Part shown: positions 640-61,881 of the stretch, one piece after another
Layout of the letters: every line of letters starts with the position of its first letter
Position numbering within the stretch: position 1 is the first letter of the stretch
Virus record (IMG/VR): IMGVR_UViG_2540341072_000002
DNA length: 64,000 bases
DNA from: an uncultured virus (IMG/VR IMGVR_UViG_2540341072_000002)
Lineage: Duplodnaviria; Heunggongvirae; Uroviricota; Caudoviricetes
Direction: 5' to 3' (one strand)
Notes under the pieces: generated by a model
Told to the model about the DNA's origin: nothing
Database searches by the model: none
Seen by the model: only the letters and a program-made list of their open reading frames with translations
Position numbers and translations under genes: made by a program

Positions 640-654
640 TGTAATGCTCTTTTT
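625..654. terminator. Intrinsic terminator after yoyH
   Basis: AAAAAGAGCATT-TAGTGT-AATGCTCTTTTT inverted repeat with T tract. Confidence 0.7.
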
Positions 655-740
655 GTTTAAAACACTTCTTTTATCTTGATTCTTTATGCTCTCGGATTAA
701 GACGCGTAATCGTGTTAAGGTTAGCATAAGGAGTGATACC

Positions 741-971
741 TTGCTAAAAGTTGCAAAAATTTCGGTTTCTTGCATTGTATTAGTCTTGTGCATATACTCA
801 TTGTTCAATCAAAATGAATTATTGTTGATTGTTGTGCAATTATTTGTTGCCGCCCTTTTATCATTAGTCGGAGTTGAAGCGATATTAAGCAAACAAAAAC
901 TGTCCGAATATTTACTGTTTGGATCAGCAGCCTTCTTACTTGTTGTAAACGGTGTGAAATTCATAATTTAA
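741..971 (+). CDS. yoyI: Small three-helix membrane protein, 76 aa
   Basis: TTG start after AAGGAG, strongly hydrophobic. Confidence 0.75.
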   Translation: MLKVAKISVSCIVLVLCIYSLFNQNELLLIVVQLFVAALLSLVGVEAILSKQKLSEYLLFGSAAFLLVVNGVKFII

Positions 972-975
972 TATG

Positions 976-1371
976 TTAATTTCGTAGGAATATCGAATCC
1001 CAAAACCAATAAATAAACGCAGCTACAATACTCATAATGTAATACTCAAAGCTTCTGAACATGGTAAGAGCATTTGGCGGATAATCAACAAACCAGAACA
1101 AAAACACAGCTGAAAAGGCCACTGCAATATAAATTAAAAAATTGATCAAACTGAATTTTCTGCGCCTTCTTCTTAGCCACACTTGCAAAGGGGCAGCAAA
1201 CACCAAGTAAGTGATTAAAGCGTAAAATGCAATGATGGCAATTGTGACTAATGCTATTGCCATAAATCCAGAGTAAACAAACAGATACAGACCAAAAATT
1301 AGACCAAATGACAAACTTGAAAACGCCAGAGTATAAACATAACTGTTTAACGCTTTTTGATTGAGGCTCAA
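976..1371 (-). CDS. yopD: Integral membrane protein, 131 aa
   Basis: About four hydrophobic segments, GGAGG RBS, synteny. Confidence 0.8.
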   Translation of the reverse strand: MSLNQKALNSYVYTLAFSSLSFGLIFGLYLFVYSGFMAIALVTIAIIAFYALITYLVFAAPLQVWLRRRRRKFSLINFLIYIAVAFSAVFLFWFVDYPPNALTMFRSFEYYIMSIVAAFIYWFWDSIFLRN

Positions 1372-1428
1372 ATCAGCACCTCCGCTTGTTTCACATTTCC
1401 CTTTAAAATCGTAGTTTTTAGATTTCAG

Positions 1429-2757
1429 TTACAGTTGGTCTTTAACAACTGATCTATATCTAATTAAAAAGGCCTCTAGTCTCCCCAACTCTGTTTTATG
1501 GTAATCATGATGAGTCCCTTCGGTTTCTGGAAATAATGGATTTTTGATAGGAAGCGATTCTGGTGAGTCCTTATGACTTTGGAACGTTTCCCAAGCTACG
1601 GGGTCAGATATTTGGAATGTCTCGCCCAATAACGAACAATGTCCACTGTCTTTTCTTTGCCTAACAGGAATAGCATAATTCTTATATAGCTTGTAATTTT
1701 CAATTGTTTGTCTGTTAATCTTAGAAGACAAATAACAGATTCCCCAGTATTCCGAAGACTCTGTCTGTTTAACCCATTCAAGCAAAAATTGAGGAATGAT
1801 ATATTCTGGTTTAAAAATGTCTTTTTGTTTTTTTACTCTAATTAGGCATGCAGATATTAAAATCCATGTCATAAAGTATGCATTAAATTTATATATTTTT
1901 CTTCTAAATGTTATTTCAAAAAATTTCTTTAGATTATCTGCCAGTTCCGTAGGTGAAACACTTAAATCCAGAATTTTTATATCTTCATCCTCAAGGTGAA
2001 AAACCGAAGTGTAGGTAGTATTTAAGTCAGGCCTTCCTAGTTCTTCCCAACAAACAAGTGATGAACTTCCAAGGTAAAGACATGGAAATCCTGGTATACT
2101 AAAACGATTTGTGCGTATTATTCCTCTCTTCTCAAATGGTATATGAAACATATCATCTTTAGAAAAAACCTCTGTGTTACTGGTTCTCATTCTAAAGAAT
2201 TTACAAGGAATACGAATACTATCAATGTTATATAAGAGCAGCTCTTCAATGTTAACCTCTTCAGAAAAGATATTCATTCCTTTATCAAATTCAGCATATG
2301 CTAAATGCACATAACCATCTAAGTAAAGTTCAATTGTTTTAGTAATTTGTTGCGCAAAAGATTCTATCTTTGTGATTTTTGATGAATCGAATGATTTTCT
2401 ATTTGGTAGCTTATGCAATTCTTCTATATATTCTGTATAAACATTCTCCATAAAAGCATCTAAATCATCCCCACCCGTTCTTTCTATTGGAATATCGCAT
2501 TTATCAATAATAAAACTTAATATTGGATCTATTTCAATAGTCCATTCAATTAAAATGTCTAACCTTTCTTTATTTGAAAAGGTGCTGGTGTTAATTTTTT
2601 CCTCCCCAATAACATCATTGGTGTTTTTGTCTATAAATTCAGGTTTTACTGTTAACTCTTTAAAAATATCAAATGCAAGCTCTTTCAAAGAATCATTAAT
2701 TTCCTCATGTTTCGATAATTCTTTTTTTAGCCTTTTAGCTTTTCTATACAAATCCAT
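1429..2757 (-). CDS. yopC: RES-domain protein, 442 aa
   Basis: FRMR...NRFSIPGFPCLYLG...E...EYIIPQFL...GICYLSSK...NYAIP is the pattern typical of RES domains. Confidence 0.8.
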   Translation of the reverse strand: MDLYRKAKRLKKELSKHEEINDSLKELAFDIFKELTVKPEFIDKNTNDVIGEEKINTSTFSNKERLDILIEWTIEIDPILSFIIDKCDIPIERTGGDDLDAFMENVYTEYIEELHKLPNRKSFDSSKITKIESFAQQITKTIELYLDGYVHLAYAEFDKGMNIFSEEVNIEELLLYNIDSIRIPCKFFRMRTSNTEVFSKDDMFHIPFEKRGIIRTNRFSIPGFPCLYLGSSSLVCWEELGRPDLNTTYTSVFHLEDEDIKILDLSVSPTELADNLKKFFEITFRRKIYKFNAYFMTWILISACLIRVKKQKDIFKPEYIIPQFLLEWVKQTESSEYWGICYLSSKINRQTIENYKLYKNYAIPVRQRKDSGHCSLLGETFQISDPVAWETFQSHKDSPESLPIKNPLFPETEGTHHDYHKTELGRLEAFLIRYRSVVKDQL

Positions 2758-2864
2758 TTATGTTCTCCTTATTAATTTTTCACCTTTTCCATATAAGTAC
2801 GATTTTATGTAGACCTGGAAAACTTGTAATTCCTTCCTATGCTTGTAACTTTAGTATACCATTT

Positions 2865-3092
2865 TCATCCTGAGTGATCGATATGGTTATGGCTTTTTTC
2901 GAATATCAGCAATTCCTGCAGCTCGATGTTTAGGTATGTACAGACTTTATCTAACAGATCTCTTGGATACCGCTCCATTTCGTCATTATAAAGCTTTCTG
3001 ACAGTTGGATACTCATGATCAATATCTCTAGATAGCTTCCGGATACTGATCTTTCTTTCGTCTATTATGGACTTTAAATTTGATCTAATCAT
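2865..3092 (-). CDS. yopB: Cro/C1-type HTH regulator, 75 aa
   Basis: [35 protein letters not shown] signature. Confidence 0.85.
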
Positions 3093-3352
3093 AATTCCAC
3101 TCTTTTCATTTGTCTTTTATTGATACCTTATAGTAATCAACTGATACATAAAAAAGACCAAGATAAGACTTGGTCAATAATGCATAAATCTAAGTTCGTT
3201 TTATCGTTCTTATTCGTGATCTAAATCGAAAACCGTTTAAACCTTTTTAACTTCTTACAACATAGATACTTAGTCAAAAGCAAATGTTTTTTGTATGGCA
3301 ACTCTGAGAAATTTTTATCGCCAACTGACTGTAAATCCTTATAAAGACATTT

Positions 3353-4669
3353 TTAATTGTCTCTTGTTTTCCAAGGGACAAATTCATATACTCCTTCTAT
3401 TATAGGTACCTTTAAACGGTTTACATAACTTCCTTCATATCCCAATATTCCAAGTGTTAGTAATTCAAGATACCAAACACCAAGATAAAGTACATGGAGC
3501 TTATCTATCGGATTGTCAAAATCAAGTTCCCTTGTAGGATGGACTATCTTATTCCTAAATACAGTAAAAAGGTGTGGGCCATCGTCATAATTATCCTTAA
3601 TGTCAATAAAGAGTTTTGGTATTGATAAGTCAATTGAAAATCTAGATAATATTTCTCTAAATTTCTCTGCTGCATTCATATACTTATATTTCGATTTACT
3701 AATATTGGATTTTCTGTCTACAATAAGATACACCCACGCCAAAGTTTCCAATGCAACCTGAACAGATACCACCTTGTTTTCTACTATACTTGATGAATGT
3801 GCTTGGGAGTACCAACTCAACACTTCCCATAAAACTTTATTCCAAAAAGGATCTTCTTGCTTCTCAATCACCTTTGGAAATAAATGTTCTAAGGATGGAG
3901 ATTTTTGTTTTGGAAACCAAGTAATATTATTAGTCCAGCCATCTATTAATGGAACTTGGTATTTACTCCATATTACCTCCTCGTTGTGGTATCCTTCCAA
4001 TGTAGGGATAGCAACATGTCTACCTGCTGAAAAGGATAATAACCAATAAAGCCCTGAAATAAGTGGTTCTACTTCTTTAGTATCAAATAATTTATCATCC
4101 ACTCTTTTTAAATATCCCACATGTGTTATTAAGTATCCACCCGAATTTTTTAATCTATCAAAGATTTTTTTGTTTGAATAGTCATATCGCTTATCCAAAA
4201 TTATTTCCCAATCTTTATATTTTAATTTTGTTCTCCCTGAAAATTTAAACCTTCCATGCACAATCCTTCTACCTAAATCATTCACGAAGTTAACCACCGT
4301 GAATTCCATTCTATTCACTTTAGTTTCAGCTGAGGTTAAAATAGATCGTTTTAGTATCCCTGATACTTTGTTCCCTTTACTTCCGTCTGTTATACCTGAA
4401 ATAAGAACTTCAGATTTCATAAATCCAGGTACATTAATCATCATATTATTACTTTTCATTGCCTTTTCAAATTCGAAAAGCTTGCTAAGATTGCCTGAAA
4501 TGGCTCCTTCAAATATTAGTCTAGCTTTTGGTAAAAATGCAATTTTAACTTCTCCCAAGATTTCAAAAAAATCATCAGCAACTTCAATTGTAAAGTGGCC
4601 GGTATAGATTTTAATCGGTTCATTAATATCGTACTCTAAAAAGGAGGATTCAAGAGCTATATTTTCCAA
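3353..4669 (-). CDS. yopA: Hypothetical protein with C-terminal HEPN-like RxxxxH motif (ApeA-like), about 438 aa
   Basis: Long ORF; TTG start at 4669 after AGGTG; FRNKIVHP motif. Confidence 0.75.
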   Translation of the reverse strand: MENIALESSFLEYDINEPIKIYTGHFTIEVADDFFEILGEVKIAFLPKARLIFEGAISGNLSKLFEFEKAMKSNNMMINVPGFMKSEVLISGITDGSKGNKVSGILKRSILTSAETKVNRMEFTVVNFVNDLGRRIVHGRFKFSGRTKLKYKDWEIILDKRYDYSNKKIFDRLKNSGGYLITHVGYLKRVDDKLFDTKEVEPLISGLYWLLSFSAGRHVAIPTLEGYHNEEVIWSKYQVPLIDGWTNNITWFPKQKSPSLEHLFPKVIEKQEDPFWNKVLWEVLSWYSQAHSSSIVENKVVSVQVALETLAWVYLIVDRKSNISKSKYKYMNAAEKFREILSRFSIDLSIPKLFIDIKDNYDDGPHLFTVFRNKIVHPTRELDFDNPIDKLHVLYLGVWYLELLTLGILGYEGSYVNRLKVPIIEGVYEFVPWKTRDN

Positions 4670-5025
4670 ATTTATCACCTAATTATTTTCTCAAATTTTA
4701 AAGTCTATTATTTAAGTTCTTCATTACTTTTGCAATTCCTTCACTAAGGAGGTCATTCCCCATAGAGTTCCAAACCTGCTTCTTTTCTTTTAATTCTCTG
4801 TCCCTAATTCTATGCGATTATTTAATGAACCTGTCTTCTTGAAGATCAATCATGACCATCTCCAATTTTGTTCTGTACAGCTTTCACTATCCATATTCTA
4901 TTTAAAATATGCATTTTATTTTGATATATATCTGAAGCTAAACATTCTTTATTCAAGAAAAGAATCGCTGCTTTGAACTATTGTGACTCATTTAAAACGG
5001 TATAATCACTTGTTAAAGCTAATTC

Positions 5026-5532
5026 CTATCCTTCCCAGGTAATAATATAATTGAGTGGTTCTAACCCCTTTTCTAAACAAAGAACCGTGTACTCAAATTC
5101 TAAATCAAGGATTTCTCCTTCCCATGCCTCATCGAAATTCCCTGACCCTCTTTCTTTTCGATCAATGAAATAGTCCCTCTTCATCTCAATGATTTGTTTT
5201 TCAAGATCTTCAAATCCCGTAGAATAATCTTGATCAGTATTATGAATTTCTTCATCAATTTTATCGAGTGCAGCGTAAACTTCTTCGTCAGACATGCAAT
5301 CAACTTGTGAATGCGTGTATCCCAGATTAAGCAGGTCATTTCGGCAGTTATTTGAAATGCTTCCTTGTAATCTATTTGTAAGACTAGACTCAAATTTTTC
5401 AAGCTGTGATTCCAGCTCAATACGATTGGATTTAAGAGCATCAAGATTAGTATCTAACTCACAGTATTGTGTATTAATTTCATTTTCCAATTCATCAAGT
5501 CTAGACTCCAGATTAAAAAGTTGCGCATTCAT
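5026..5532 (-). CDS. yonX: Acidic coiled-coil hypothetical protein, 168 aa
   Basis: AGGAGG RBS, own sigma-A promoter, synteny. Confidence 0.8.
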   Translation of the reverse strand: MNAQLFNLESRLDELENEINTQYCELDTNLDALKSNRIELESQLEKFESSLTNRLQGSISNNCRNDLLNLGYTHSQVDCMSDEEVYAALDKIDEEIHNTDQDYSTGFEDLEKQIIEMKRDYFIDRKERGSGNFDEAWEGEILDLEFEYTVLCLEKGLEPLNYIITWEG

Positions 5533-5551
5533 TTTAACTACCTCCTGTTTT

Positions 5552-5636
5552 TATACATATTATTTGTATTTGTTATTTATATTATAACTTGATAATCTAT
5601 AATAATCAATAATTAAATACATATTTTTTGTATTTG
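5552..5636 (-). promoter_or_regulatory. sigma-A promoter of yonX flanked by two ATACA-N7-TGTAT operators (probably SPbeta repeated element/MrpR sites)
   Basis: Minus strand TTGATT (5609-5604), 17 bp, TATAAT (5586-5581); operators at 5553-5569 and 5617-5633. Confidence 0.75.
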
Positions 5637-5859
5637 ATATAGCGTTAATATTAATTGCTCATGAGGGGGTTTGGGGGTGGTGTGAGCAAAAATTGTTCAG
5701 GTGAGGAACGAACCGTTTTGAACAATTAGCAGCACCCCCATTCTCTTATTTTATTATTTAATTTATTTACTTCTTTTCTTCTACGAGAGACCCCTATAAA
5801 ACCCTTATGTACCAAGGGTTTCAAAAACGATTTATTGCTTTTTTTTTCATACGCTATTC

Positions 5860-7092
5860 TTATCTCTGGTTCTCTAACCAATCCATTAACAGCTTTCTCA
5901 TTCGTGATGATGGGACATATATATTAATATCCTGTCCATTTCTTATAGCTGATCTCCAAATCCATTGAATCATCTCAGATAAAGCAAAATTGTCCTCGTT
6001 TATGATTATTCCCTTGGATCTAAAATAATCATCAATTGCAGGATTAACGAATCTGTTTATTGAATAAACCAAAGATCTTTTGTGACTGTATTCGTTCGTT
6101 GCTTTGATGTTACAGGCTAAAAAGCCTTTCGTATAACCTTTCCCACTTAGTTTACTTTTATGTGATTTAAAAGTTGTCCAAAGATTACCCTTAGACTTTG
6201 ATTTAAGTATATTCTGGTAGTAATTCAGAATATTATTCTTAAGCCGTTTATGTAACACTGAACGTTTTTCAAACCAGTTTTTTGATAATGCATAATAATC
6301 ATCACCAATTTTATTCAAGTCACCTTCATATATTTTAATTTTATGTCTTAGGACATCCTTCTTTGCTTTATCAAATTGCCTACTGTGCTGCATTAATTTA
6401 TAACTGTCATTGTCTTTGACTACTGCATAAAGTTCATATTCTATTCCGTTAATGTCATAATAATATTTCTGAATCTGAGCATCAAACAAATATGTAAGAT
6501 TATAGACCTGTTTAAATTGGGCAAAGATGTCTGCAGGAAACTGCCAAAACAATACAGACTCATTATGCAAAATTAAGTTTTTACTCTTGGCCAAATGTTT
6601 AAGTGTTTGGAACTCTCCTTTATATTCCCTATTAAGATTTCTTTCTTGTTCATCATTCCAAATGATTGTGCCATTATTGTTCTTAATCCATTCATTTTGG
6701 AACAGCATATCCAGATCATCCTTGGATATATTTAATTTCTTAACCACTTCCATAGTTTCATCCAGGATAAGAGTATAATTGCCTGAGTAAATCAATTCTT
6801 TAGTTGTTTCATTAGCCATACTGAATAAAGCATGAGTTGTTACAATGTCATTGTTATCTGCTAAATGTTTATGTAATGAATCCAGTTTATAGAGCGTTTC
6901 CCCTTCCTCACTATGTATTTTTGGTTCGTAAAACTTTCTATTCGTACATGACCTCTTTATTCTTGTTACCTCATCAAGATATGGTGTGATAAAGATAAAA
7001 TGCTCATTCTTTGGTGCCTCATTCATCATCTTAATAATGTAAGTTGTTTTACCAGATCCCATAATAGAATCGATAACTTTAACTCTTTCCAT
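5860..7092 (-). CDS. yonV: Superfamily-2 helicase-like P-loop protein, 410 aa
   Basis: Walker A MGSGKTT, Walker B LILDE, C-terminal QWIWRSAIR motif VI-like. Confidence 0.8.
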   Translation of the reverse strand: MERVKVIDSIMGSGKTTYIIKMMNEAPKNEHFIFITPYLDEVTRIKRSCTNRKFYEPKIHSEEGETLYKLDSLHKHLADNNDIVTTHALFSMANETTKELIYSGNYTLILDETMEVVKKLNISKDDLDMLFQNEWIKNNNGTIIWNDEQERNLNREYKGEFQTLKHLAKSKNLILHNESVLFWQFPADIFAQFKQVYNLTYLFDAQIQKYYYDINGIEYELYAVVKDNDSYKLMQHSRQFDKAKKDVLRHKIKIYEGDLNKIGDDYYALSKNWFEKRSVLHKRLKNNILNYYQNILKSKSKGNLWTTFKSHKSKLSGKGYTKGFLACNIKATNEYSHKRSLVYSINRFVNPAIDDYFRSKGIIINEDNFALSEMIQWIWRSAIRNGQDINIYVPSSRMRKLLMDWLENQR

Positions 7093-7173
7093 ATATCCTC
7101 CTTATATTTTAATTTTGTATCGAAAAATAAGGAACGATAATTGCCTTACCGCTCCCTTATTTATAACGCATAT

Positions 7174-7362
7174 TTAATTATCCTTGTGTTGCTGCATGAT
7201 TAATACTGAATCATCTTGTTTTACTTTGCTTATCTCTTCTCTGTACTCTAAAAGGTCTTTATCAATTCTGACAGTTGCTTCTTTGATGGAGTCAATATCT
7301 TTCTTGAGCATTTCCAATTCCTTTGTTAGCTGCTGAATAGCATCCAGGAATTTTTTCTCCAA
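7174..7362 (-). CDS. yonU: Small coiled-coil protein, 62 aa
   Basis: GAGGTG RBS, synteny. Confidence 0.75.
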   Translation of the reverse strand: MEKKFLDAIQQLTKELEMLKKDIDSIKEATVRIDKDLLEYREEISKVKQDDSVLIMQQHKDN

Positions 7363-7406
7363 TCATCTCACCTCAATGATTTAATTATACCATGAGGCCT
7401 ATATGA

Positions 7407-7853: not shown

Positions 7854-8204
7854 TATGTACACCTCCTTTCCTATGACTCTATTATAACATAATTCATGAT
7901 TTTTATATACATATTTTTTATATTTGTGGTAAGTTATTTGTGTGTTGATGGATGGTATTAAGATGCCTTGTGTGCTGTTTGAATGAACAAGAATACAATT
8001 GGATTGGGAATTGATTAAGGATGCTTAGAGAGGTGTTATATTGGCTCTGAGAGCGTGTTAATGTATGAGTGTGATTAGGTGGAATGTATGATGGGATCCG
8101 GTGTAAATTTTTCGTCTTCTTTCCTCAAGAAGTGAAATATGATACAAGGTAAAGCCTCCTACCAACAAAATAAAAACTTATGTTCGACTTTATTTTCTAA
8201 AGAA

Positions 8205-10177: not shown

Positions 10178-10206
10178 TAGACAAATACAAATAATATGTA
10201 TATAAT
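10178..10206 (+). promoter_or_regulatory. sigma-A promoter of yonP-yonO with an ATACA-N7-TGTAT operator in the spacer
   Basis: TAGACA (10178-10183), 17 bp, TATAAT (10201-10206); operator at 10185-10201. Confidence 0.8.
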
Positions 10207-12986: not shown

Positions 12987-13229
12987 AAAGTGCCTTGAGC
13001 CTTACTCCCCCAAGGTGTACAGCGATTTTACCGAAAAAAACTTCAACAAAAAAGTGTCTTTATCCCTTGGTGCTACTGGGTTGAGAGCACTTTTGGAGAT
13101 AATCGTCATAAGGGAGACAGAAAGCTAATTTCCACATAAAAGGGCTAGTACGTTTCCCCCGTCTATATAAAAGACAATCTTTATTGTTCATTTAGAATAA
13201 ATTTAATAATACTTAGGAGGAAATTGATT

Positions 13230-17059: not shown

Positions 17060-17277
17060 AACGTGATCTCCCCTTTAGATATCGTAATACATAAATAGTG
17101 TAATCCACTTTTTTATCAGATGTCAACATCCAATAGTGGATTTTTAAACCTAAAGTTAAACTATTAATCTTTTTTTGATAAAACTTTAATTTTATTTAGA
17201 TTGGAGTCGCATTAATGGTTGACTGCAAAAAGGTTTATTAAAGTAATACAAAAAAACGATTGAGGATGAAGAAGAAA

Positions 17278-24123: not shown

Positions 24124-24161
24124 TACATAACAAATAAATTTCAATAAAAGGAGTATTTTAA

Positions 24162-29885: not shown

Positions 29886-29948
29886 GTCCTCCCCTCTTGT
29901 TTTTCTAGATAAAAGACAGTTTTTATTCAAATTAAGGAGGTGGAGTTG

Positions 29949-33039: not shown

Positions 33040-34041
33040 ATGACCAAACCAATTGAAAAGAATATGCTCAGATCTCGAGCAATAAAACTCCCCGAGGTCA
33101 CGGAATCAATGTGGGAGCAAGTAGATGAAGAGCACAGAAACTTGGTTCAAGAGTTTTTAGATGCTCATTCATTTAGAGATAAAACACGAAAGCAGTATTA
33201 CTCCTCCCTTCGCCAATTCTTTTGGTGGGTACATACCTCTCTTAACGGGAAAAAACTTTATAAGATCTCAAAGCGTGATTTCATTAGGTATCAAAGTTTC
33301 TTAAAGAATCGTGGGATGTCTTCAAGTGGGATTGCTTTAAAAAAAGCCGGTGTATCATCGTTAAATAATTATATCGAAAATGTTGTTGCAGAAGATGATC
33401 ATAATTATGAGAAATTCAGAAATTTCACCCGCGGGCTTCCAGCTATTCCTAAAACCACTACCTATGAAAAAGTTAAAGTTACATATGATGATTATAAACT
33501 GATGATGGACGCCCTAAAAGAGGACGAAAATTATTTGGGGATGGCATGGCTTGCTACTGCCTTTAATGTTGGCGGGCGAAGAGCAGAACTCATACAGTTA
33601 AAAACAGAAATATTAGATTACCCTGTTCCAGAGGGTCAGTCATACGTGATGAGTCATAAGGTATTTGGAAAAGGTAAAGGTGAAGGAAAACCTCTTGAGT
33701 ACATGATTAACACAGAAGCACTGGAGTATCTTCGCTTATGGCATGAAAAACGTGGCTATGATCATGAATACCTCTTCACTACTCAGTATGGCGGAGAGCC
33801 TAAACAGATGTCAGAGTCTTGGGCTGATTATTTTTGCTCTGATGTGTTATCAGACATCCTTGGTCGACGTATAAACCCCCACCTCTTTAAAGCTTCGTGC
33901 ATCACTTATCTCCTAGAAGTTAAGAAAGTCAAAATTGAATTGATAAGCAAATATGTAGCTCATCATGAAGATGTCTCAACAACAATCAAACATTATGATT
34001 TACGGGATTTTGAAGAAGAAAAAAATCAAATATTTGTTTAG
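33040..34041 (+). CDS. yomM: Tyrosine recombinase (XerC/D-like), 333 aa
   Basis: N-terminal core-binding domain; GGRRAEL (R), KGKG (K), HLFK (HxxK), AHH (H), KHY (Y). Confidence 0.9.
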   Translation: MTKPIEKNMLRSRAIKLPEVTESMWEQVDEEHRNLVQEFLDAHSFRDKTRKQYYSSLRQFFWWVHTSLNGKKLYKISKRDFIRYQSFLKNRGMSSSGIALKKAGVSSLNNYIENVVAEDDHNYEKFRNFTRGLPAIPKTTTYEKVKVTYDDYKLMMDALKEDENYLGMAWLATAFNVGGRRAELIQLKTEILDYPVPEGQSYVMSHKVFGKGKGEGKPLEYMINTEALEYLRLWHEKRGYDHEYLFTTQYGGEPKQMSESWADYFCSDVLSDILGRRINPHLFKASCITYLLEVKKVKIELISKYVAHHEDVSTTIKHYDLRDFEEEKNQIFV

Positions 34042-34373: not shown

Positions 34374-34548
34374 GATATCTCCTCCAATTGATAATTTGAG
34401 CTTAGTGTTAACCATTAGAGAAATTCTATTCAATTCAGCATAAAATCCCTCTTTTATTCAGAATCAAGATTCCTCGTTTGAGGGATTTTGCTTATGTATA
34501 AAACAAAGAATCACTTTGTCCCCCGATAAAGACAAAGTGATTTTAAAA

Positions 34549-50160: not shown

Positions 50161-50329
50161 GAATAAAGGAACAATAAAGGTGGTGGTTACGTTCTAGATA
50201 AAATATAGATTTTATTCAAAATACATACTTGAAAAACAGAGATAACAAGAGCATACGTGAGATAAAGAGAGATTGGGTTTAGTCCCCTTCTCTCTTTTTT
50301 GTGCTCAAATTTAATTATTAGGTGGATAG

Positions 50330-53564: not shown

Positions 53565-54829
53565 ACTTCAATTCCTTTCAGGACGTGTTCAATATTGTGG
53601 AGTGAGTTGGCAAGATATTGTTTAATTTCTTTTTTCATATTATCATTTTTAATTTCCCCTGATATTTCTTTTACTCTTTCCCAATTTTCGAGTTGAATAT
53701 TAAGGCTTATTAAAATTCTTTTAAAGTGATCTTTTGTTGTATTTATAGCACTGTATCTCTCGTCTGTAAGAGCTTCATCAATCATATTGCTTAAAGAAGT
53801 AAGTTTATTTTGCATATCTACTAACAAAATTGCAGATCTAAAGTAATCAACATCAACACATCTTGGATATTCAGTTTCCAATATATCCAAATATAAAGTT
53901 AAGTCAACATAATTATTTCTCTGCAATAATAAAGTACATAATAGCACTAAAGCATCTATAAAATGTCTTTGATCATTAAATTTTTTATAGTTGTTTATTG
54001 ATTTTTTCAGATAATCAATTGCTTCTTCATCTTTATCAAGTAAATGTAGTTCTCTGCCGAAAAAGAATAACCATTTTGGGTTTTCGGGCTCCAATCTTAA
54101 CATTTCTTCTGTGAGATTTATATTCCTTCGTGTTTTTGATTTTATATTATTCTCTGAAGGATTATATCCATTATGGTAAACCTTAAGGTTCACAATGAAA
54201 TTAAAAGGTAGACTATGATTATAATTCATAGGTTCTTCATGCACTTTCCCATGAAATTTAACTTTACCATTGAGCCGAAACATTCTTCGTGTATCAGAAT
54301 ATAGATGTCCAGTATATTCTTCTATATATGGACTAACTACACAATCAATAGAAAAAAACTCTAAAACTCTAGCTACTTTAGCTATTTTCCCTTTGTTTTC
54401 TTTAGAGTATAAATTATCTGCATCAATAAAATAAATCCATTCGGAAGTAGCATACTCTATAATTTTATTTCTAGCATAGGAAAAATCATTCTTCCACTTT
54501 TCATATTTAATTTCAACATCAGGAAAATCACATTTAATAATATCAACGGTATCATCAGTGGAGTATGAATCTAGAACAATAATCTCGTTAAAATCATCTT
54601 TAACACTATTTAAACACTTTTTAATTCTCTTGCTTTCGTTATAAACTATAATACCGCATGTTATTGTAGGAGTATCTGATTTTTCATAACCTGCAACCAA
54701 AGATTGAATTGACATCACATCAATATCTTTTTCATATTCCATTATATTAACCAACAATGACAAATCTGAATACAATAAAGAATCGGCATAGCCTTTCTTT
54801 AATTCCAAATAAATATCACTCAGTTTCAT
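53561..54829 (-). CDS. sunS: Sublancin S-glycosyltransferase
   Basis: GT2 fold motifs DSYSTD, DAD, VHE. Confidence 0.95.
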
Positions 54830-55242
54830 TATCTATCACCATTTTTATCAAAGAACTTTTCTATTTGGCTTGCACTTCTATAGCCCTCTAACCGATCTTT
54901 TTCTTTGCCATCTTTGTAATAGAGAATCGTTGGAGTTTTATTCAAATTATATTTATCTAAAAATTCAGTGTTATAATTTTCCTTTTCTTCAATATTTAAA
55001 GCCTGTACTTTTAACTTTTCTTTTTTAATTACTTCATTTAACTCAGGTTTTATTTCTTGACAAGGAGGACAACTTGTCTCATAAACATAAATAAATTTAG
55101 GTTTTTTAGAGTCTACTTCTTTTTGATATTGAGTTAAATTTATATCATTATAAAAAGGTTTTTCGCTACCTGTAGAAACATAAACGAAAATACTAATGGC
55201 TGCTGCTATTAAAACAAGAAATAAAACAATCCACTTTTTCAT
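54829..55242 (-). CDS. bdbA: Thioredoxin-like oxidoreductase BdbA
   Basis: CPPC motif, N-terminal anchor. Confidence 0.95.
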   Translation of the reverse strand: MKKWIVLFLVLIAAAISIFVYVSTGSEKPFYNDINLTQYQKEVDSKKPKFIYVYETSCPPCQEIKPELNEVIKKEKLKVQALNIEEKENYNTEFLDKYNLNKTPTILYYKDGKEKDRLEGYRSASQIEKFFDKNGDR

Positions 55243-57356
55243 ATAGAATACTCCTTATTTTCCGAGTAGCTCGACTCTATAATCCTATTGTTTCTGAATA
55301 CTAATTTTTTATTGTATTTGAAGTTACTTGGGTCATTATGAGTTATAAGAATAATTAAACAATCCATCCTGTGTAAGGTTTCATAAATCAATTTTGTGTT
55401 ATCCGGATCAATGTTAGATAATGACTCATCTAAAATTAATACTTGTGGTTGATGTAAAATTGCTCTTGCTAATGCTAACCGTTGTTTTTGTCCTGTAGAT
55501 AGATTGGAACCGTTTTCAGACAATTTATAACTGTACTGCTTGTCCAAGTTACAAATGAATTCATGGCATTGGGACATTATACACGCGTTTTCAATTTCGT
55601 TCTGATCAAAAATCTCTCCCATGCAAAGATTCTCTTTAATGGTTCCCTTAAAAAGAAAAGGATTTTCGTCAATATATACAATCCTTTTTCTTATTGATAA
55701 ATGATCGTATCGATTAATATCTAATCCATTTAAATAAATTGACTTATCGGGTACTTTATACAATTTAGACAAACTTTTTGCAAACGTACTTTTTCCAGTA
55801 CCACTTTCTCCAATAATAAGGACTTTATCCTTTCTGTCTAATATTAAATTAATATCTTCAACTATATAACGCATTGGGTCTGCCCCAATATTAAGATTAA
55901 CTGTTTTGATATTCTGAATAAAATCAAGTTCAGTTAAATTCTCATTGCTATCTTGCTGAACTGGATAGTTTACTACGTCAAAAAATCTTATGGAAGCAAC
56001 ATGTGCCTGCTGAAGATCTGATTGCATACTCAATATACGATCTAGTGAACTTAGCAAAAAGGCTGCTAATGTGTTTATAAATAGCAGTGTACCCAAACTC
56101 ATTGAATCATTTAGAACTTGTCTTGTCCCAACCCATAGGATAATTATTGTAAAAGAGTTTTGAATTAATCCTTTTAGTATTTCATTGCTAATAACTGCCT
56201 TTGCTACACTAAAGGTTGAATTTAATTGTTTATCATATGTAAGATGAAATTTTTCTAAAAAAAACGAGGTTTTATTTAAAGAATAAACAGTTGTCATATT
56301 CTTCAGAAAATTAATTAAAAGAGAGGTAGATTTAGCCTTATCCTCCATCAGTTTTTGATTTTTCTTTTTAAGATGATCAAAAAACAAAATCGCTAGACAT
56401 GAAAGTAGCAAAATCGGGAGAATAATTGTTAAGAAAAGAATGTTATTTGTTCTATATAAAATAACTCCTAATCCCAGTATTAAAATTATATCAATTATTG
56501 CAGTAACAAAGTTAGCACTAAAAAAGTCTTTAATATATATACCATCATTGAATCGAGAAATTACCTCTCCATCTTCTCTGTTTTCAAAAAAATTAATAGG
56601 TAATTTTGTTACTTTATTAAAATAAACATTTGACATCTCTTTATCAACTTTGTAAGACAATTTTATTATCAAATATGATCTTACAAAATCGAAGATGCAC
56701 CTTATTAAGACCATACTTATGAATATTAAAGTGATTGTGATTAAAGATTCTCTTAAGCTTCTTGGGATAATTAGGTCAACTAGAAACTTTATATAAAACG
56801 ACCCAGCTACAGCAAGACCCACAACGAACAAGGAAGTCAATAAAATCACAAAAACGATCAATTTATTTCTAAAAAGTATGTCCTTAAAAAAGTAAGAATG
56901 TTTTTTTTGATCTTTTTCTTTTTCAGGAATTGACTCTTTGTCAATTTCTAATATAAAGTTTGTGAATTTACTTTCAAAATCCTCTTTTTTTATTTTAGTT
57001 ATTTTGTCTTTATCAGGATCACTAACAAGTAAATAGTTATTTCTAATTTCGTATATTGTTATGTAATGTCCATATTCCTCCCCTTCTAACAAAGCTATAC
57101 AAGGGAGCTTTATTTGTTTTAGGGCTTCGAATGTCTTATTTTCTTGCAATTCAAGTGGCCTAGTTTTTATCCCCATCTTCTTAAAAATAACAATTAAGTC
57201 TCTTAAACTATAGCCTTCCTTATCCCCAATTAGGTCTAGTAAGAAATCAATTCCATAGTTAAGGTTATGAAACTTTAAAATTGACGAGATACAAGCTAGT
57301 CCACAATCATGACTATTAAACTGTTTAGTATGAACATATTTCTTTTTCTTATTCAA
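55239..57356 (-). CDS. sunT: Peptidase-containing ABC exporter SunT, 705 aa
   Basis: C39 peptidase QFNSHDCG, TM domain, GESGTGKS and LSTGQ. Confidence 0.95.
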   Translation of the reverse strand: MNKKKKYVHTKQFNSHDCGLACISSILKFHNLNYGIDFLLDLIGDKEGYSLRDLIVIFKKMGIKTRPLELQENKTFEALKQIKLPCIALLEGEEYGHYITIYEIRNNYLLVSDPDKDKITKIKKEDFESKFTNFILEIDKESIPEKEKDQKKHSYFFKDILFRNKLIVFVILLTSLFVVGLAVAGSFYIKFLVDLIIPRSLRESLITITLIFISMVLIRCIFDFVRSYLIIKLSYKVDKEMSNVYFNKVTKLPINFFENREDGEVISRFNDGIYIKDFFSANFVTAIIDIILILGLGVILYRTNNILFLTIILPILLLSCLAILFFDHLKKKNQKLMEDKAKSTSLLINFLKNMTTVYSLNKTSFFLEKFHLTYDKQLNSTFSVAKAVISNEILKGLIQNSFTIIILWVGTRQVLNDSMSLGTLLFINTLAAFLLSSLDRILSMQSDLQQAHVASIRFFDVVNYPVQQDSNENLTELDFIQNIKTVNLNIGADPMRYIVEDINLILDRKDKVLIIGESGTGKSTFAKSLSKLYKVPDKSIYLNGLDINRYDHLSIRKRIVYIDENPFLFKGTIKENLCMGEIFDQNEIENACIMSQCHEFICNLDKQYSYKLSENGSNLSTGQKQRLALARAILHQPQVLILDESLSNIDPDNTKLIYETLHRMDCLIILITHNDPSNFKYNKKLVFRNNRIIESSYSENKEYSI

Positions 57357-57413
57357 TTTCAATCCCCGCTTTAAATATGAGGGAATATTTAAAATATTCC
57401 CTCTACAAATGTT

Positions 57414-57584
57414 TTATCTGCAGAATTGACGATAGTTTTGACAAGCAACAGCTCCGCCACCACAACCAATTGTACCGCCACTAGCACATTGTAGCCACAA
57501 CGCAGCACACTGAGCTTTTCCTAATCCACTACCTTTTTGGTTTTCGAGTTCCTCTAGTTTAACTTCTTTAAATAGCTTTTCCAT
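57414..57584 (-). CDS. sunA: Sublancin 168 precursor, 56 aa
   Basis: [19 protein letters not shown] leader, then [37 protein letters not shown]. Confidence 0.98.
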
Positions 57585-57840
57585 TTGTAAAACCTCCCCA
57601 TTTGTTTGCAATCCGGATTACATTTTTTAATATAAAGGAAGATAAATCTAAATTCAACCATATTTTTTATTTTTTTTTGAAAATTATAAGGAAACTTGTT
57701 CATAAATCATAGAAAAAAAACTTTATTACCTATCAATAAACAGAATTGGTTGTAATACACTAAATAAAATTGACTATTATGGATTTATTTTGAATTAATA
57801 ATGATAAAAATTTAGGTAAATTTTTAATAATTATAGATAC

Positions 57841-57876
57841 AAAAAAGTACCTTCTATTGTAAGAAGGTACTTTTTT
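57841..57876. terminator. Terminator after sunI
   Basis: AAAAAAGTACCTTCT-ATTGTA-AGAAGGTACTTTTTT. Confidence 0.8.
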
Positions 57877-57880
57877 ATGT

Positions 57881-58198
57881 TCAAACACTAACCCTTTTAT
57901 ACTTTTGAATAAATTGTTGAGCTCCATTTAAAAAAACTAGAAAACGCTTATTTGTAGTTTCAATAACAATTCTATCTGGTTGAGCATATGGCATACCAAT
58001 TTTATAATCGATATTATCTGCAACTCCATACTTGTCTGACTCTTTAATACTAACTATTTGATTAATTGGAATTTCTGTTTTAGATAAACCAAATTTTAAG
58101 ACTAAGCATTTTTCATCAAAACTATAACGTGTATTTAGGAAAACAGTAAAAATAAAGAAAAGTGCTAATAAAATGATTATCATAACTACATATTCCAT
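57881..58198 (-). CDS. sunI: Sublancin immunity protein, 105 aa
   Basis: N-terminal TM helix, PH-like domain, position upstream of sunA. Confidence 0.92.
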
Positions 58199-58299
58199 AT
58201 AATCACTCTTTCTTATGTTTTTATATAATTTTACCATGTTTTTTAAGTTTTTAAAACAAAAAAACTTTAAGCGATGTGTTATATAAGTTTAAATTTATC

Positions 58300-59550
58300 T
58301 TAACTCTTATGCCCACCTGTTAATCCAGCTCGTTGAAGTGCAGTTCCTGCTGGTGTATAAGAAACTGCTCTCAGAATCGCTTTAGAGCCGTATTTACTTC
58401 TAATCCCATCCATTACAAAACCGAGTTTCCTTCTCTTTTCATTATCCACTTCAAATAAACTCAGCTGCTGATTAACATCATCCTCAATATTCGATAACGT
58501 GACTGAGACACTTCTCACAGTCTTACCCGAGTAAAACTTATTAAAAAGCATCAAGCAGCATCTATAAATATCCATCGTGATACTTGTAGGAAGATCAATT
58601 GTTTTGGAACGATGAAAACCACCACCAAGCTCATCCTTACTGTACCCAATTCCCAGACTGATTGTTCGACCAACTTTATTATGTGTACGTGCCCTTCTTG
58701 CGACTTCTTCACAAATCTCCAGAAGAACCGCCTTAATCTCTTCACTCCTTGTGTAATCCCTCAGTAAAATCTGACTCTTACCGAAACTAATCTGACCTTG
58801 CATCAACGGAGCACCTATTTCTGATAAATCAATTCCGTGAGCATGGTAGTACAACTGGTTTCCCATTATTCCGAACTTCTTTTCAAGCAGCTCTAAAGGA
58901 AATTTGGCTAACTGACCTATAGTCGATATTCCCATCCGATTTAGGTTTCTTTCCATCCTCCCTCCTATCCCCCACATTTTAGACAAAGGGCGAACCTTCC
59001 AGAGTTTATTTGGTACATCTTCATATCTCCAACGTGCAATGCCACTCTTTGTTTTCTTACTCTCCAGGTCAAGTGCAAGCTTACTGAGTAGCATATTGTC
59101 TCCAATACCAACTGTGCACATCAAACCAAATTCTCTCCACATGCTGCTTTGGATTGCTTTGGCCATTTCTTCAGGATCTTCTTTTCCTGCATCTAAAAAA
59201 GATTCATCAATTGAATACGTATGGACACATTTCTCAGGAACAAATCTGTAAAACAGCTTTGTAATTTCAGTTGAAACTCTGATGAAAAGCTTCATTTGTG
59301 GATTTACAATGTGTATCCTTGGATCTTCAGGTATCTCAAATAGTCTCGATCCTGTTTTGATTCCAAAATCTTTTTTAAGTGCAGGAGATGCAGCTAATAC
59401 TACACTTCCCTGTCTCTCCGTATTCCCTACAACAGCAAGATAGCATGTTAAAGGGTTAAGCCCCATTGTTACAGCCGATACAGAAGCATAAAAGGATTTC
59501 ATATCGACACAAAGTATATTCTTACGTGGAAATTGTGAGTAATCAATCAT
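58300..59550 (-). CDS. uvrX: Y-family translesion DNA polymerase UvrX
   Basis: CVDMKSFYASV and YSIDE motifs. Confidence 0.95.
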   Translation of the reverse strand: MIDYSQFPRKNILCVDMKSFYASVSAVTMGLNPLTCYLAVVGNTERQGSVVLAASPALKKDFGIKTGSRLFEIPEDPRIHIVNPQMKLFIRVSTEITKLFYRFVPEKCVHTYSIDESFLDAGKEDPEEMAKAIQSSMWREFGLMCTVGIGDNMLLSKLALDLESKKTKSGIARWRYEDVPNKLWKVRPLSKMWGIGGRMERNLNRMGISTIGQLAKFPLELLEKKFGIMGNQLYYHAHGIDLSEIGAPLMQGQISFGKSQILLRDYTRSEEIKAVLLEICEEVARRARTHNKVGRTISLGIGYSKDELGGGFHRSKTIDLPTSITMDIYRCCLMLFNKFYSGKTVRSVSVTLSNIEDDVNQQLSLFEVDNEKRRKLGFVMDGIRSKYGSKAILRAVSYTPAGTALQRAGLTGGHKS

Positions 59551-59875
59551 TGTATGTAACTCCTATGATGTTATTCATGTTGATATAAACTGTATTGTCA
59601 TTCTGGTCTTTTACGTGAAGCTTTTGTTGTTCAAAATTTATGTAATGGACTCTGCCGGTGACATTTTCAACGAATCCATTGTGAAAAAGTTTAAATTGCA
59701 ACTCTTTGTTAAATTCAAGTGCCTCAGAGACGAGAATATCCATCTCTTCAATTTGTTGATCATCTAAGGATGGCTTTTCAATTTTTGATACATCAATCAA
59801 ATCTTGTTTAAGCTGTGTCAAATGTTCTGGAAGCATCATTGATGTCCATTTGATTGTTCCTCGATCTCTAAGCAT
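59543..59875 (-). CDS. yolD: YolD-family accessory protein, 110 aa
   Basis: MLRDRGTIKWTSMMLPEH motif. Confidence 0.92.
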   Translation of the reverse strand: MLRDRGTIKWTSMMLPEHLTQLKQDLIDVSKIEKPSLDDQQIEEMDILVSEALEFNKELQFKLFHNGFVENVTGRVHYINFEQQKLHVKDQNDNTVYINMNNIIGVTYND

Positions 59876-59908
59876 ATCGCCCCACTCCTTTATTGATCTA
59901 ATATTAAC

Positions 59909-59952
59909 AGAACAAACGTTCTTCATTCAAGATAAACCAGAACAAAAGTTCG
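59909..59952. promoter_or_regulatory. Two LexA (DinR) SOS boxes between yolD and yolC
   Basis: AGAAC-AAAC-GTTCT (59909-59922) and AGAAC-AAAA-GTTCG (59939-59952) match GAAC-N4-GTTC. Confidence 0.85.
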
Positions 59953-60048
59953 ATGTAAATGTTGGTAATAAAATATAAAGGTCAATGATGATTTGCGTAG
60001 TATTAATAAAGGAGGGATTCTTTTCCATGAAGGAGAGTGTAATGGTTA

Positions 60049-60384
60049 ATGAAGAAGAGGCTAATCGGATTTTTGGTCTTAGTTCCTGCTTTGATTATGT
60101 CAGGTATTACTTTAATCGAAGCAAATAAAAAGTCCCCTTTGGAAGTAATTGATAATATTCGGGATGAATTTGGTATATTCAGTGTGCAAATTGGTCAAAC
60201 AGATCCGGCAATTACAATTGGCATGGATCAAACCAAAAGTGAAGCAAAGCTCCGTGAGTATTTAAAAGATAATCTGTCTAGAGAAGCAAAGGAAAAATAT
60301 AAGATCTATATATTAAAAGATGATATTAATAAATTGGAGAAAGAACATCGAGAGTATTTGAAAGCAAATAACCCCAATAAGTAA
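60049..60384 (+). CDS. yolC: Exported or membrane-anchored protein, 111 aa
   Basis: Signal-like N-terminus, synteny. Confidence 0.8.
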   Translation: MKKRLIGFLVLVPALIMSGITLIEANKKSPLEVIDNIRDEFGIFSVQIGQTDPAITIGMDQTKSEAKLREYLKDNLSREAKEKYKIYILKDDINKLEKEHREYLKANNPNK

Positions 60385-60415
60385 AATGCCCAGCTCTTTA
60401 TTTAAGCTGGGCATT
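60385..60415. terminator. Bidirectional terminator between yolC and yolB
   Basis: AATGCCCAGCT-CTTTATTTA-AGCTGGGCATT. Confidence 0.75.
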
Positions 60416-60426
60416 GTTTTCATTAT

Positions 60427-60792
60427 TTAAATAGAATTTCTATAAGCATTAATTGCTTCATTTCGTAATAGCATATTATCTTTATTAACCATGCCTAAGT
60501 TATAAGCTTTTTTGATAACATCTAATACCTGCGAATCCATTGTAGAAAGGTTTCCGCCTGCAGTAAATCTCAATTTCCAGTCTTCTAAAGACTTATTCAA
60601 ATCAAGCGTGCTTTTTTTATTCTCGGGTTTAACGATCGCATTTTTCTCAAGTTTTTCGCAAAACTCGTTAAAACCTATTGAAGATTGCTGAGTATTGTTC
60701 TGTCCATACCCTTCTGTTGCTAAGCTACAAAAAGCTAAGAATTTTGGATCTTTAGTTACATCATAATTAGAAGTACTAATCACCTGGTTCAC
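60427..60792 (-). CDS. yolB: Hypothetical protein, about 118-121 aa
   Basis: GTGA overlap with yolA; start could be 60783. Confidence 0.75.
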
Positions 60793-61256
60793 TCTCTTTC
60801 AAAATCAATTTTTTGACTGTAAACAAAAGTGGTGCCTGAGCTCAATGCTTTAATCTGTATAGAGTTATCTTGAAGTGCGTCCATGGGAATCTCAAAATAT
60901 TTATCCCAGCCTATTACCACCTTATTTTGACCAAGGATAGCATCAGATTTAAACATTTTAGCTGTACCGTTATACAACAGATTCTTACCGTCTTTGCCTG
61001 TGATAACTGTTAACTTGGTATAACCCATAAAACGAGCTTTCACATATAGTTTATTCCCCTTCAAAACGTTTGGCGCCTTGGTTTGACTAGAAGTGAGGTT
61101 ATCCCAAGCAAAATCGTTTCCGTCTGATGTAATCCCTGTAATTTGTAGATAGTAGAGTGGTAATGCTTCTGCCGCTTTTGCTTTTGATGAATCAGTGAAA
61201 GCGAAAGCAACAACTGCTAGAAGAGCAAGCAGTGAATATGTAATTCTCTTCTTCAT
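60789..61256 (-). CDS. yolA: Secreted protein, 155 aa
   Basis: Sec signal peptide ending AKA; AAGGAGG RBS. Confidence 0.85.
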
Positions 61257-61486
61257 TTCCTAAATCCTCCTTGGTACAAGTTTACATGTTAAATATCGTC
61301 ATTTGAAGGGAATTGTTTAATATTTGAAATAAAAAAAGAACCTGCATTAAGCAAGTTCTTTTCATATTGTCAATTTATTGTGAATTTTTAACGACAAGGA
61401 CATTTATGTATAGTATAATATTTCCTGTACATAAAGTTTGCTCACTCAAGGGAGTCTTGCTCATCCCCTATGAAAGGGGTGGGAAA

Positions 61487-61603
61487 ATGACTGTTTACGA
61501 ATCATTAATGATAATGATCAATTTTGGCGGATTGATATTAAATACCGTCTTGTTGATCTTCAATATAATGATGATTGTAACGTCAAGCCAAAAGAAAAAA
61601 TAG
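61487..61603 (+). CDS. bsrG: Type I toxin BsrG, 38 aa
   Basis: MTVYESLMIMINFGGLILNTVLLIFNIMMIVTSSQKKK; RBS held in a CCCCT/AGGGG stem; terminator at 61693-61722. Confidence 0.93.
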   Translation: MTVYESLMIMINFGGLILNTVLLIFNIMMIVTSSQKKK

Positions 61604-61777
61604 ACCTTCCCTTGAGTTTGGACACCTGAAGGGTTAGGCCTACGCAGATTTGACAACGAGCAAGCCCTTTGATGGGCAGCTTTTGTACAGAGCCAGGGTG
61701 CTACCAACACCCTGGTCTTTTTATTTTATGCATTTAATTAAACAAAATGCAAAAAATAATTATATAATTGTATCATT
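61597..61777 (-). ncRNA. Antitoxin RNA SR4 (ends approximate)
   Basis: Minus strand TTGCAA (61813-61808) and TATAAT (61789-61784); overlaps the bsrG 3' UTR; known locus. Confidence 0.75.
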
Positions 61778-61881
61778 ACCCTAATTATAACCATATAAAA
61801 ATGGTATTTGCAATACTATTGCTTGGTGAATAAAACCATTATTTTATTGGAACCCAGTACTTTATCGATGCACAAGTGATA

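Follow-up and report, generated by a model that had tools for sequence, protein, structure and literature searches.

What are the short inverted repeats that stand between the genes of Bacillus phage SPbeta, and which protein, if any, reads them? The stretch of DNA analysed here (the window, 64,000 nucleotides, IMG/VR record IMGVR_UViG_2540341072_000002) is the reverse strand of bases 10342–74341 of NC_001884.1 (Bacillus phage SPbeta), with 3 mismatches; a window coordinate x corresponds to the record coordinate 74342 − x. It is placed at 2212108–2276107 of the genome of B. subtilis 168, in which the SPbeta prophage measures 134 kb. The original prediction, made from the window, was that dispersed dif-like sites, with a core TAAAA-N6-TTTTAT and two 11-bp arms around a 6-bp spacer, are recombination sites which let the phage gain, lose or swap accessory genes (morons) in the manner of an integron or a pdif array, possibly by means of the phage protein YomM. 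The comparison of related genomes points to a different arrangement: its best explanation is that TAAAA-N6-TTTTA is a lineage-wide DNA element of SPbeta-like phages, which appears to lie at fixed joints of allelic module exchange.

A strictly spaced motif that belongs to the phage

All seven predicted TAAAA-N6-TTTTAT cores are present exactly, at 658, 4903, 17179, 29910, 34441, 50199 and 61831. On both strands of the window the pattern has 13 matches, compared to 0.68 ± 1.01 expected (100 shuffles with a maximum of 5, none of which gave 13). The shorter core TAAAA-N6-TTTTA has nine sites in the window, the extra ones being at 24145 and 4532. The counts of TAAAA-Nk-TTTTA in the window, for k from 0 to 15, are 0, 1, 0, 1, 1, 0, 9, 3, 0, 2, 1, 0, 2, 1, 1 and 0. 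The expected enrichment of N6 (9) over N5 (0) and N7 (3) is therefore real, and so is the preference for intergenic DNA: this represents 15% of the window, and eight of the nine N6 sites touch it.

The host genome contains 65 N6 sites in total, 34 of them within the 134-kb prophage and 31 in the remaining 4.08 Mb, while each of the other spacers occurs 0–3 times in the prophage and 20–40 times genome-wide. The 31 sites outside the prophage are thus no excess, which shows that the element belongs to the phage and not to the host; the possibility of a site for a host factor was rejected on this ground.

The near matches of the original prediction fared less well. As a class they show no excess at N6, since SPbeta contains 41 one-mismatch cores with this spacer, compared to 34–60 with the spacers N3–N9. 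Taken singly, those at 2792 and 13168 are supported by the relatives, whereas that at 1404 is really an N7 match. Sequence related to the sites at 1404, 3340 and 4532 is absent from the four relatives phi3T, SPR, SPbetaL1 and BUCT082. The gene boundaries at which the sites had been placed agree with NC_001884, except that yoyH/yoyI, yozP and bsrG/SR4 are absent from its annotation.

Distribution among related phages

The same spacing prevails in the relatives. The five SPbeta-like genomes contain 34 (SPbeta), 30 (phi3T), 35 (SPR), 33 (SPbetaL1) and 37 (BUCT082) N6 sites, compared to 0–4 sites with other spacers. Psychrobacillus phage Perkons has 17, a Staphylococcus SPbeta-like phage 17, Tsamsa 23 and FADO 33, when the means for other spacers are about 1–3, and in Geobacillus E3 30 of the 38 matches with spacers N4–N8 are at N6. 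This brings to ten the related large phages of which it is the strongest dyad. In a blind scan of all 5-mers with spacers of 2–10, TAAAA-N6 ranked first in the five SPbeta-like genomes, Perkons, the Staphylococcus SPbeta-like phage, Tsamsa and FADO; it was not the top pattern in Lactococcus phage 949 or Enterococcus phage VPE25. The reversed arrangement, TTTTA-N-TAAAA, has no spacer peak in the five SPbeta-like genomes or in Perkons.

Perkons also contains a second dyad, TGAAA-N6-TTTCA (10 copies, compared to 1.5 at other spacers), which may be the same element with a tolerated change in its arms. In the Enterocloster phage PMBT24, 10 of the 17 TAAAA-N(4–8)-TTTTA matches are at N5 and have a near-identical centre: this is a different repeated element.

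Anatomy and placement of the sites

When the sites are oriented by gene direction, their consensus is T-Y-T-R-N-W-TAAAA-N6-TTTTA-W-N-Y-A-R-A, and the better conserved arm is the gene-proximal one. The 11-bp arms that had been proposed are thus real as a consensus, but they are far weaker than the core. The strict N6 dyad, together with the weak consensus of its 11-bp arms, corresponds to the geometry of the core sites of tyrosine recombinases, in which two inverted arms surround a centre of 6–8 bp.

The dyads occupy the gap between the stop codon of the upstream gene and the ribosome-binding site of the next gene. The upstream gene has its stop codon in the TAA of the core in 11 of 31 sites, and the next start codon is 19–35 nt past the core in 12 of 31. 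The sites of Perkons have the same layout relative to the genes as those of SPbeta. Annotated terminator stem-loops are found within 20 bp of several sites, on either side, and at aimR and yorE the dyad is followed downstream by SPBRE, the MrpR operator, and by a promoter. Among the 34 sites of SPbeta, 24 are located among genes outside the late cluster of the window.

Mosaic breakpoints at the sites

SPbeta was aligned to phi3T, SPR, SPbetaL1 and BUCT082 by blastn, and the breakpoints of homology were compared to a null model matched to the intergenic/coding split (2000 trials). As the original prediction had implied, the breakpoints map to the sites: 28 of the 162 unique ones are at most 25 bp from a site centre, compared to 5.0 ± 2.2 expected and to a maximum of 13 in the 2000 trials. 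In the early region (82.8–134 kb), 16 of the 18 junctions that contain a dyad have a breakpoint, compared to 28 of the 80 dyad-free junctions (Fisher p = 3.6e-5). Of 44 alignment ends near sites, 23 are at the edge of the core or at most 6 nt outside, 6 are inside the core and 15 are farther away; because the arms are invariant, these ends do not place the exact crossover point. A catalogue of 27 insertions and deletions includes 18 with no site at all, and the remainder are mostly one-sided.

The centres as addresses

The 6-bp centres are all distinct within a genome (34/34, 30/30, 35/35, 33/33 and 37/37 in the five SPbeta-like phages). Between genomes they are shared: each pair has 15–23 centres in common, compared to about 0.9 by chance (maximum 5), and these are perfectly colinear in every one of the ten genome pairs. 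The centre of a site is called its address below.

The DNA next to a given address often differs from phage to phage. Among 204 pairs of sites with the same centre, the 300-bp flanks are both homologous in 70 cases, only the right one in 43, only the left one in 40 and neither in 51. Counted by address, a replaced flank is seen at 34 of the 46 shared centres: neither flank is related in some pair at 20 of them and one flank is replaced at 14, none being replaced at the other 12. At eight addresses the left flank is replaced in one comparison and the right flank in another, and the centre persists on whichever side the replacement has occurred.

The segments between the sites show the same pattern. 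When two genomes have a segment bounded by the same two centres (55 pairs), the segments are homologous in 24 cases, partly homologous in 20 and unrelated, even when translated, in 11. Conversely, 47 pairs of homologous segments have kept both bounding centres (24 pairs), one (20) or none (3). The mismatched pairs that were inspected are accounted for by one-base variants of the centre, or by a site lost or gained between the two; among these inspected pairs, out of the 47, none clearly placed a homologous segment at another address. The sole junction seen that resembles a deletion between two different addresses is at 110920 in SPbetaL1, where the arm and centre of SPbeta site 95129 run directly into the right flank of site 95563, the intervening yoqY segment being absent.

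On this analysis, the pattern resembles an allelic exchange of cassettes at fixed addresses, according to the logic of heterospecific lox/FRT sites, and not an integron. An integron or pdif array that moves morons is a poor fit, considering the 24 segment pairs of 47 which keep both centres, the lack of any clear new address and arms which have no complementarity of their own at each site. Of the idea that morons are swapped at the sites, the part that finds support is the allelic swap at fixed addresses; no movement to a new position was clearly seen among the inspected pairs.

The sites in the window

Seven dyads of the window illustrate these comparisons. The first (652–679, core 658–673) has the centre CACTTC on the + strand and separates yopD and yopE, 4 bp from an annotated terminator stem-loop. 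In the record orientation, the TAA of its core closes an upstream open reading frame of 45 codons, and the homology of phi3T and BUCT082 is lost at the edge of the site. The dyad between yopA and yonX (4897–4924, core 4903–4918) has the centre TATGCA, which reads TGCATA in the record orientation; no flank of this site is homologous in phi3T, SPR or BUCT082. The same centre was found in 11 instances, in five phages and in six prophage loci of four other species, with 6 types of left flank and 10 types of right flank; the island between them, which is conserved, measures about 32 nt.

The dyad at 17173–17200 (core 17179–17194, centre CTTTAA) is in the divergent yonI/yonH region. There, the homology of SPR and BUCT082 is lost at the edge of the core and neither flank is homologous in SPbetaL1. 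At 34435–34462 (core 34441–34456, centre TCCCTC), about 400 bp past yomM and with an annotated stem-loop 9 bp away, the homology of BUCT082 stops at the last base of the core; in SPbetaL1 the arm is one base shorter and the next 397 bp are absent. One flank of the dyad between yomE and yomD (50193–50220, core 50199–50214, centre TATAGA) is replaced in SPR. The dyad between yokL and yolA (61825–61852, core 61831–61846, centre CCATTA) has one flank for which the homology of SPR and BUCT082 begins 2–3 nt ahead of the core, the other flank being unrelated. The dyad between yomT and yomS (29904–29931, core 29910–29925, centre GACAGT), 20 nt ahead of the start of yomS, has both flanks homologous in all four relatives, and no exchange is seen.

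Other matches are less regular. Between yopC and yopB, SPbeta has a decayed site (2786–2813, core 2792–2807) with one mismatch, TATAA-N6-TTTTA; SPR and BUCT082 have an exact core in the same place, and their homology to SPbeta begins there. The near match TAAAA-N6-CTTTA upstream of yonN (13162–13189) is possibly another decayed site; about 9 nt ahead of it, phi3T, SPR and SPbetaL1 cease to be homologous. The exact core at 24145–24160, TAAAA-GGAGTA-TTTTA, has the ribosome-binding site of yonB as its centre, with the ATG 1 nt past the core. An identical core exists only in phi3T and a decayed one in SPbetaL1, and its membership in the family of sites is uncertain. The exact core at 4532–4547 is inside the coding sequence of yopA, has a centre shared with none of the four relatives and is probably a chance match.

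Relation to other elements of SPbeta

An SPBRE-like, AT-rich element is common to the upstream regions of yonX, yonT and yonP, at 5555–5569, 5619–5633 and 7909–7923 on the + strand and at 10185–10199 on the − strand, with two copies upstream of yonX and one upstream of each of the other two genes. It differs from the dyad in sequence and is non-palindromic, and the dyad was therefore rejected as the SPBRE/MrpR operator. This four-copy element is presumably SPBRE, which fits the published MrpR targets: the upstream regions of yonX, yonT and yonP are three of the ten targets reported from chromatin affinity purification sequencing (ChAP-seq), and that report assigns the peaks to SPBRE and not to the TAAAA-N6-TTTTA dyad (PMC10516654). 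In phi3T, the repressor box is reported to be bound by a monomer (bioRxiv 10.1101/2025.11.27.690993). The direct repeat TAAAA-N1-TAAAA, which matches the core of this published box, occurs 34 times in phi3T, 31 times in BUCT082, 17 times in SPbeta and 11–15 times in SPR and SPbetaL1, and it directly follows some of the SPbeta dyads (record 113682–113700 and 132765–132785, both outside the window). Also outside the window, the 'palindrome' features annotated in NC_001884.1 at 77856–77871 (upstream of yopM) and 82394–82411 (upstream of yopS) are unrelated palindromes of 16 and 18 bp, and not the dyad.

A promoter of the phage RNA polymerase YonO was rejected as well. The one reported YonO start is upstream of yonK (PMC5467207), where there is no dyad (window 13891), and most dyads are among early genes.

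Finally, a hairpin or another RNA structure was considered and rejected. In the 31 intergenic sites, the six bases outside the arms form 2.71 pairs on average within a site, compared to 2.85 ± 0.17 when the arms of different sites are combined. This absence of extra complementarity within a site suggests that the dyad is read as duplex DNA, and we infer that a protein reads it.

YomM as a candidate reader

The gene yomM (33040–34041, + strand) encodes a homologue of Xer/Cre-like tyrosine recombinases and falls within the stretch of late structural genes that is reported to depend on YonO. To our knowledge, yomM has no known role, even though SPbeta is a long-studied model phage. The AlphaFold model of YomM, built from 19 sequences with a mean predicted local distance difference test (pLDDT) score of 79.3, matches XerA (5hxy), Cre and XerH with a probability of 1.0. 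The predicted catalytic residues R180, K217, H281, H308 and Y319 are kept in all seven YomM homologues compared. YomM is 61% identical to its homologue in Perkons, compared to 53% for YonN, 50% for YonO, 31% for YopR and 28% for YopP; the helix-turn-helix regulators of SPbeta have no match in Perkons.

The distribution of YomM partly follows that of the motif. All ten motif-bearing genomes encode a YomM homologue, and the YonO-type phages PMBT24 and TR-TP1 contain neither a YomM homologue nor the motif (N6 accounts for 0 of 17 matches in PMBT24 and for 4 of 14 in TR-TP1). A YomM homologue is not a sufficient predictor of the motif, and this idea, which fails for 949, VPE25, BtCS33 and Ldl1, was rejected. 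YomM, which the original prediction named as a possible enzyme, can reasonably be considered, but only a correlation ties it to the sites. As a conserved late protein of the Xer/Cre type whose catalytic set is nearly complete, we regard it as the best candidate reader, unproven as it is.

In the Staphylococcus SPbeta-like phage, Tsamsa, FADO and 949, the last of which we take to be virulent, a YomM-type gene follows two small genes and immediately precedes the tape-measure gene. This position next to the tape-measure gene is an odd yet conserved place for a recombinase gene.

How could the content change at fixed addresses?

In the mechanism that we consider the most likely, two copies of a tyrosine recombinase of the YomM family would bind the two arms of a dyad. 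Strand exchange would occur across its 6-bp centre, with a site of identical centre on another co-resident genome. Since the centres differ within a genome, the exchange would be confined to equivalent positions: the gene order would remain intact and the content between two addresses would be swapped. Exchange by a recombinase between matching centres would thus explain why the centres are unique, why they are perfectly colinear and why swaps occur at identical addresses. That a protein binds the dyad, that this protein is of the YomM type and that it exchanges strands across matching centres are three conjectures, and we consider their combination plausible, if somewhat short of probable.

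Several observations weigh against it. Concerning the DNA, 131 of the 185 mosaic events in the catalogue of all pairs have no site at any boundary. The gap between a stop codon and a ribosome-binding site has about the same width as a site, so that a crossover within the site and selection for intact genes look alike in fine mapping. Because the five SPbeta-like genomes are related to one another, the pair counts overstate the number of independent events. At the sites where both flanks are conserved, the divergence of the centre is 1.26%, compared to 1.3–1.6% in the near flanks, so that at unexchanged sites there is no signal of selection on the centre. Four laboratory-evolved hybrids of phi3T and SPbeta were painted with parent-specific 21-mers, and their nine junction intervals are tracts in which the parents are identical, eight of 1.4–18 kb and a ninth of 39 bp that lacks a site. 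These crossovers resemble ordinary homologous recombination, and their positions cannot be tied to dyads.

Concerning the protein, a strongly conserved arm of only 5–6 bp is short for the arm of a recombinase site. Pfam sees only the N-terminal SAM-like domain of YomM, with 26.5 bits for a cut-off of 27, and a search of solved structures with the YomM sequence gave no match. At the position of the second catalytic arginine, the clade formed by SPbeta, Perkons and the Staphylococcus phage has a lysine (K284), and Tsamsa, FADO, 949 and VPE25 have an arginine. Lactococcus phage 949, Enterococcus phage VPE25, BtCS33 and Ldl1 have YomM homologues (26–31% identity) and no enrichment of the motif, and the 949 protein seems near those of Tsamsa and FADO in the aligned blocks. 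The phages that bear the motif are all related, so that its co-occurrence with YomM may result from shared ancestry.

A serious rival is that recombination on short homology acts upon a dyad whose function lies elsewhere. The dyad would be the operator or the docking site of a dimeric phage protein (the HU-like YonN, or another), with a regulatory or architectural function, and exchange would be a by-product. The conserved island of 16–32 bp would then provide a short homology for general recombination, or for a phage pathway (e.g., the Sak4-like YorG), as for the promoter–early stem-loop elements (PeSLs) of T4-type phages. Identical arms require a reader, though not necessarily a recombinase, and any dimer could bind a two-fold symmetric site whose half-sites are 11 bp apart. 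The islands at the same address have at least 16 identical bases, compared to 5 + 5 between different addresses, which alone would keep exchange allelic and colinear; around the centre TGCATA, an island of about 32 nt is kept while both flanks vary. The laboratory hybrids were made by homologous recombination, and one of them (Hyb3phi3Ts-SPbeta, 53994–54032) switches from one parent to the other within 39 identical bases that contain no dyad, which shows that short-homology recombination does occur in SPbeta-like phages. The YomM homologues that exist without the motif and the dyads of aimR and yorE, which adjoin the SPBRE operator upstream of the promoter, also suit this view, and PeSLs are a precedent (PMC2839356).

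Other observations weigh against this rival. In the oriented alignment, neither a −35/−10 consensus nor a terminator hairpin is found at a constant distance from the dyads, and many dyads are inside operons, 19–35 nt ahead of the next start, which leaves no room for a promoter. The MrpR peaks discussed above were assigned to SPBRE. As for the possible readers, YonN is 53% identical in Perkons, and the helix-turn-helix regulators of SPbeta have no homologue there. A purely regulatory site would also be expected to tolerate mismatches, but the one-mismatch cores show no excess at N6. Altogether, we find this rival doubtful, while taking it seriously.

It is also conceivable that the dyad is purely a signal for gene expression or genome organisation, maintained by purifying selection, and that the joints coincide with it through selection for breaks between intact genes. 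The width of the neutral gap, the 131 events that use no site and the ordinary conservation of the centre at unexchanged sites all agree with this possibility. It does not explain, however, why early-region breakpoints are found in 16 of the 18 junctions with a dyad but in 28 of the 80 without, nor why the exact centre is kept in 51 pairs in which both 300-bp flanks are unrelated, when about 9 same-centre pairs are expected by chance. We consider it unlikely.

A function of the dyad in RNA, as a small AU hairpin or a processing site in polycistronic transcripts, is very improbable: most sites are indeed transcribed and located in intercistronic gaps just upstream of ribosome-binding sites, but a six-base loop closed by five or six A–U pairs is estimated to have marginal stability at best, compensatory pairing is absent past the fixed core, sites also occur between divergent genes or outside operons (17179, and upstream of the aimR promoter), and a palindrome is the expected appearance of a site bound by a dimer on duplex DNA.

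Comparison with known systems

The closest likeness is to heterospecific lox/FRT cassette exchange, in which inverted arms are identical, short centres are specific to each site, only partners with the same centre recombine and swaps are made in place and in order. This likeness rests on the unique, shared and colinear centres of SPbeta-like phages and on the unrelated interiors found between identical pairs of centres. The lox/FRT exchange by Cre or Flp is an engineered system with 13-bp arms and an 8-bp centre. The SPbeta dyads differ from it by a conserved arm of 5–6 bp, a 6-bp centre, about 30 sites per genome and an enzyme that is only a candidate.

Xer/dif sites and pdif modules have in common with the dyads the 11-6-11 geometry, the match of the YomM model to XerA and XerH and the dispersed sites that flank accessory genes. 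The pdif sites of Acinetobacter plasmids resemble the dif site of the host, are thought to use the XerC/D proteins of the host and delimit modules found in many plasmids (PMC6449649). On the contrary, the SPbeta dyads are not enriched in the host, the candidate enzyme is encoded by the phage and no segment is clearly at a changed address. We would not file the dyads with the pdif modules.

The PeSLs of T4-type phages are likewise short repeats between small, non-essential early genes, at which insertions, deletions and replacements occur. As reported by Arbiol et al. (2010; PMC2839356), PeSLs contain a sigma-70-type promoter and a terminator hairpin and recombine by homology. The dyad differs from them in that it has neither promoter hexamers nor hairpin covariation, and its centres are specific to their positions.

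SPBRE, which is read by MrpR (YopR, SroF), is also a repeated intergenic element of SPbeta whose reader has the fold of a tyrosine recombinase. However, it is non-palindromic, bound by a monomer and present in about ten promoter regions, and MrpR has lost the catalytic residues of which YomM retains five of six (PMC10516654; bioRxiv 10.1101/2025.11.27.690993).

Integrons are similar in that they consist of gene-sized units parted by recombination-type sites. Their attC sites are folded single strands with paired arms, and the cassettes enter at one attI site. The arms of the SPbeta dyads do not covary, a common entry site is absent and none of the segments is clearly at a new position: the SPbeta system is not an integron.

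No description of the dyad was found in the literature, including none that pairs 'yomM' with 'subtilis', in a search that lay outside the 1999 SPbeta genome paper and supplements. The genome paper of Perkons contains none of the words 'motif', 'palindrom' or 'inverted repeat'.

Significance for SPbeta-like phages

We tentatively propose that SPbeta-, FADO- and Tsamsa-like phages may carry a natural form of recombinase-mediated cassette exchange, with a late enzyme of the YomM family, about 30 core sites and centres that serve as addresses; our confidence in this wider proposal is low. If it is true, co-resident phages and prophages would swap accessory genes slot by slot, without scrambling the gene order or deleting parts of their own genome.

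If, on the other hand, the reader is a regulator, the dyads would be a second genome-wide operator system in SPbeta, beside SPBRE and MrpR. Either outcome is within reach of standard B. subtilis genetics. If the dyads are indeed exchange joints, they would provide a concrete and testable mechanism for the gene-by-gene mosaicism of large temperate phages of Firmicutes, and a natural counterpart of cassette exchange between heterospecific sites. They would also explain how the order of the genes remains fixed while their content turns over.

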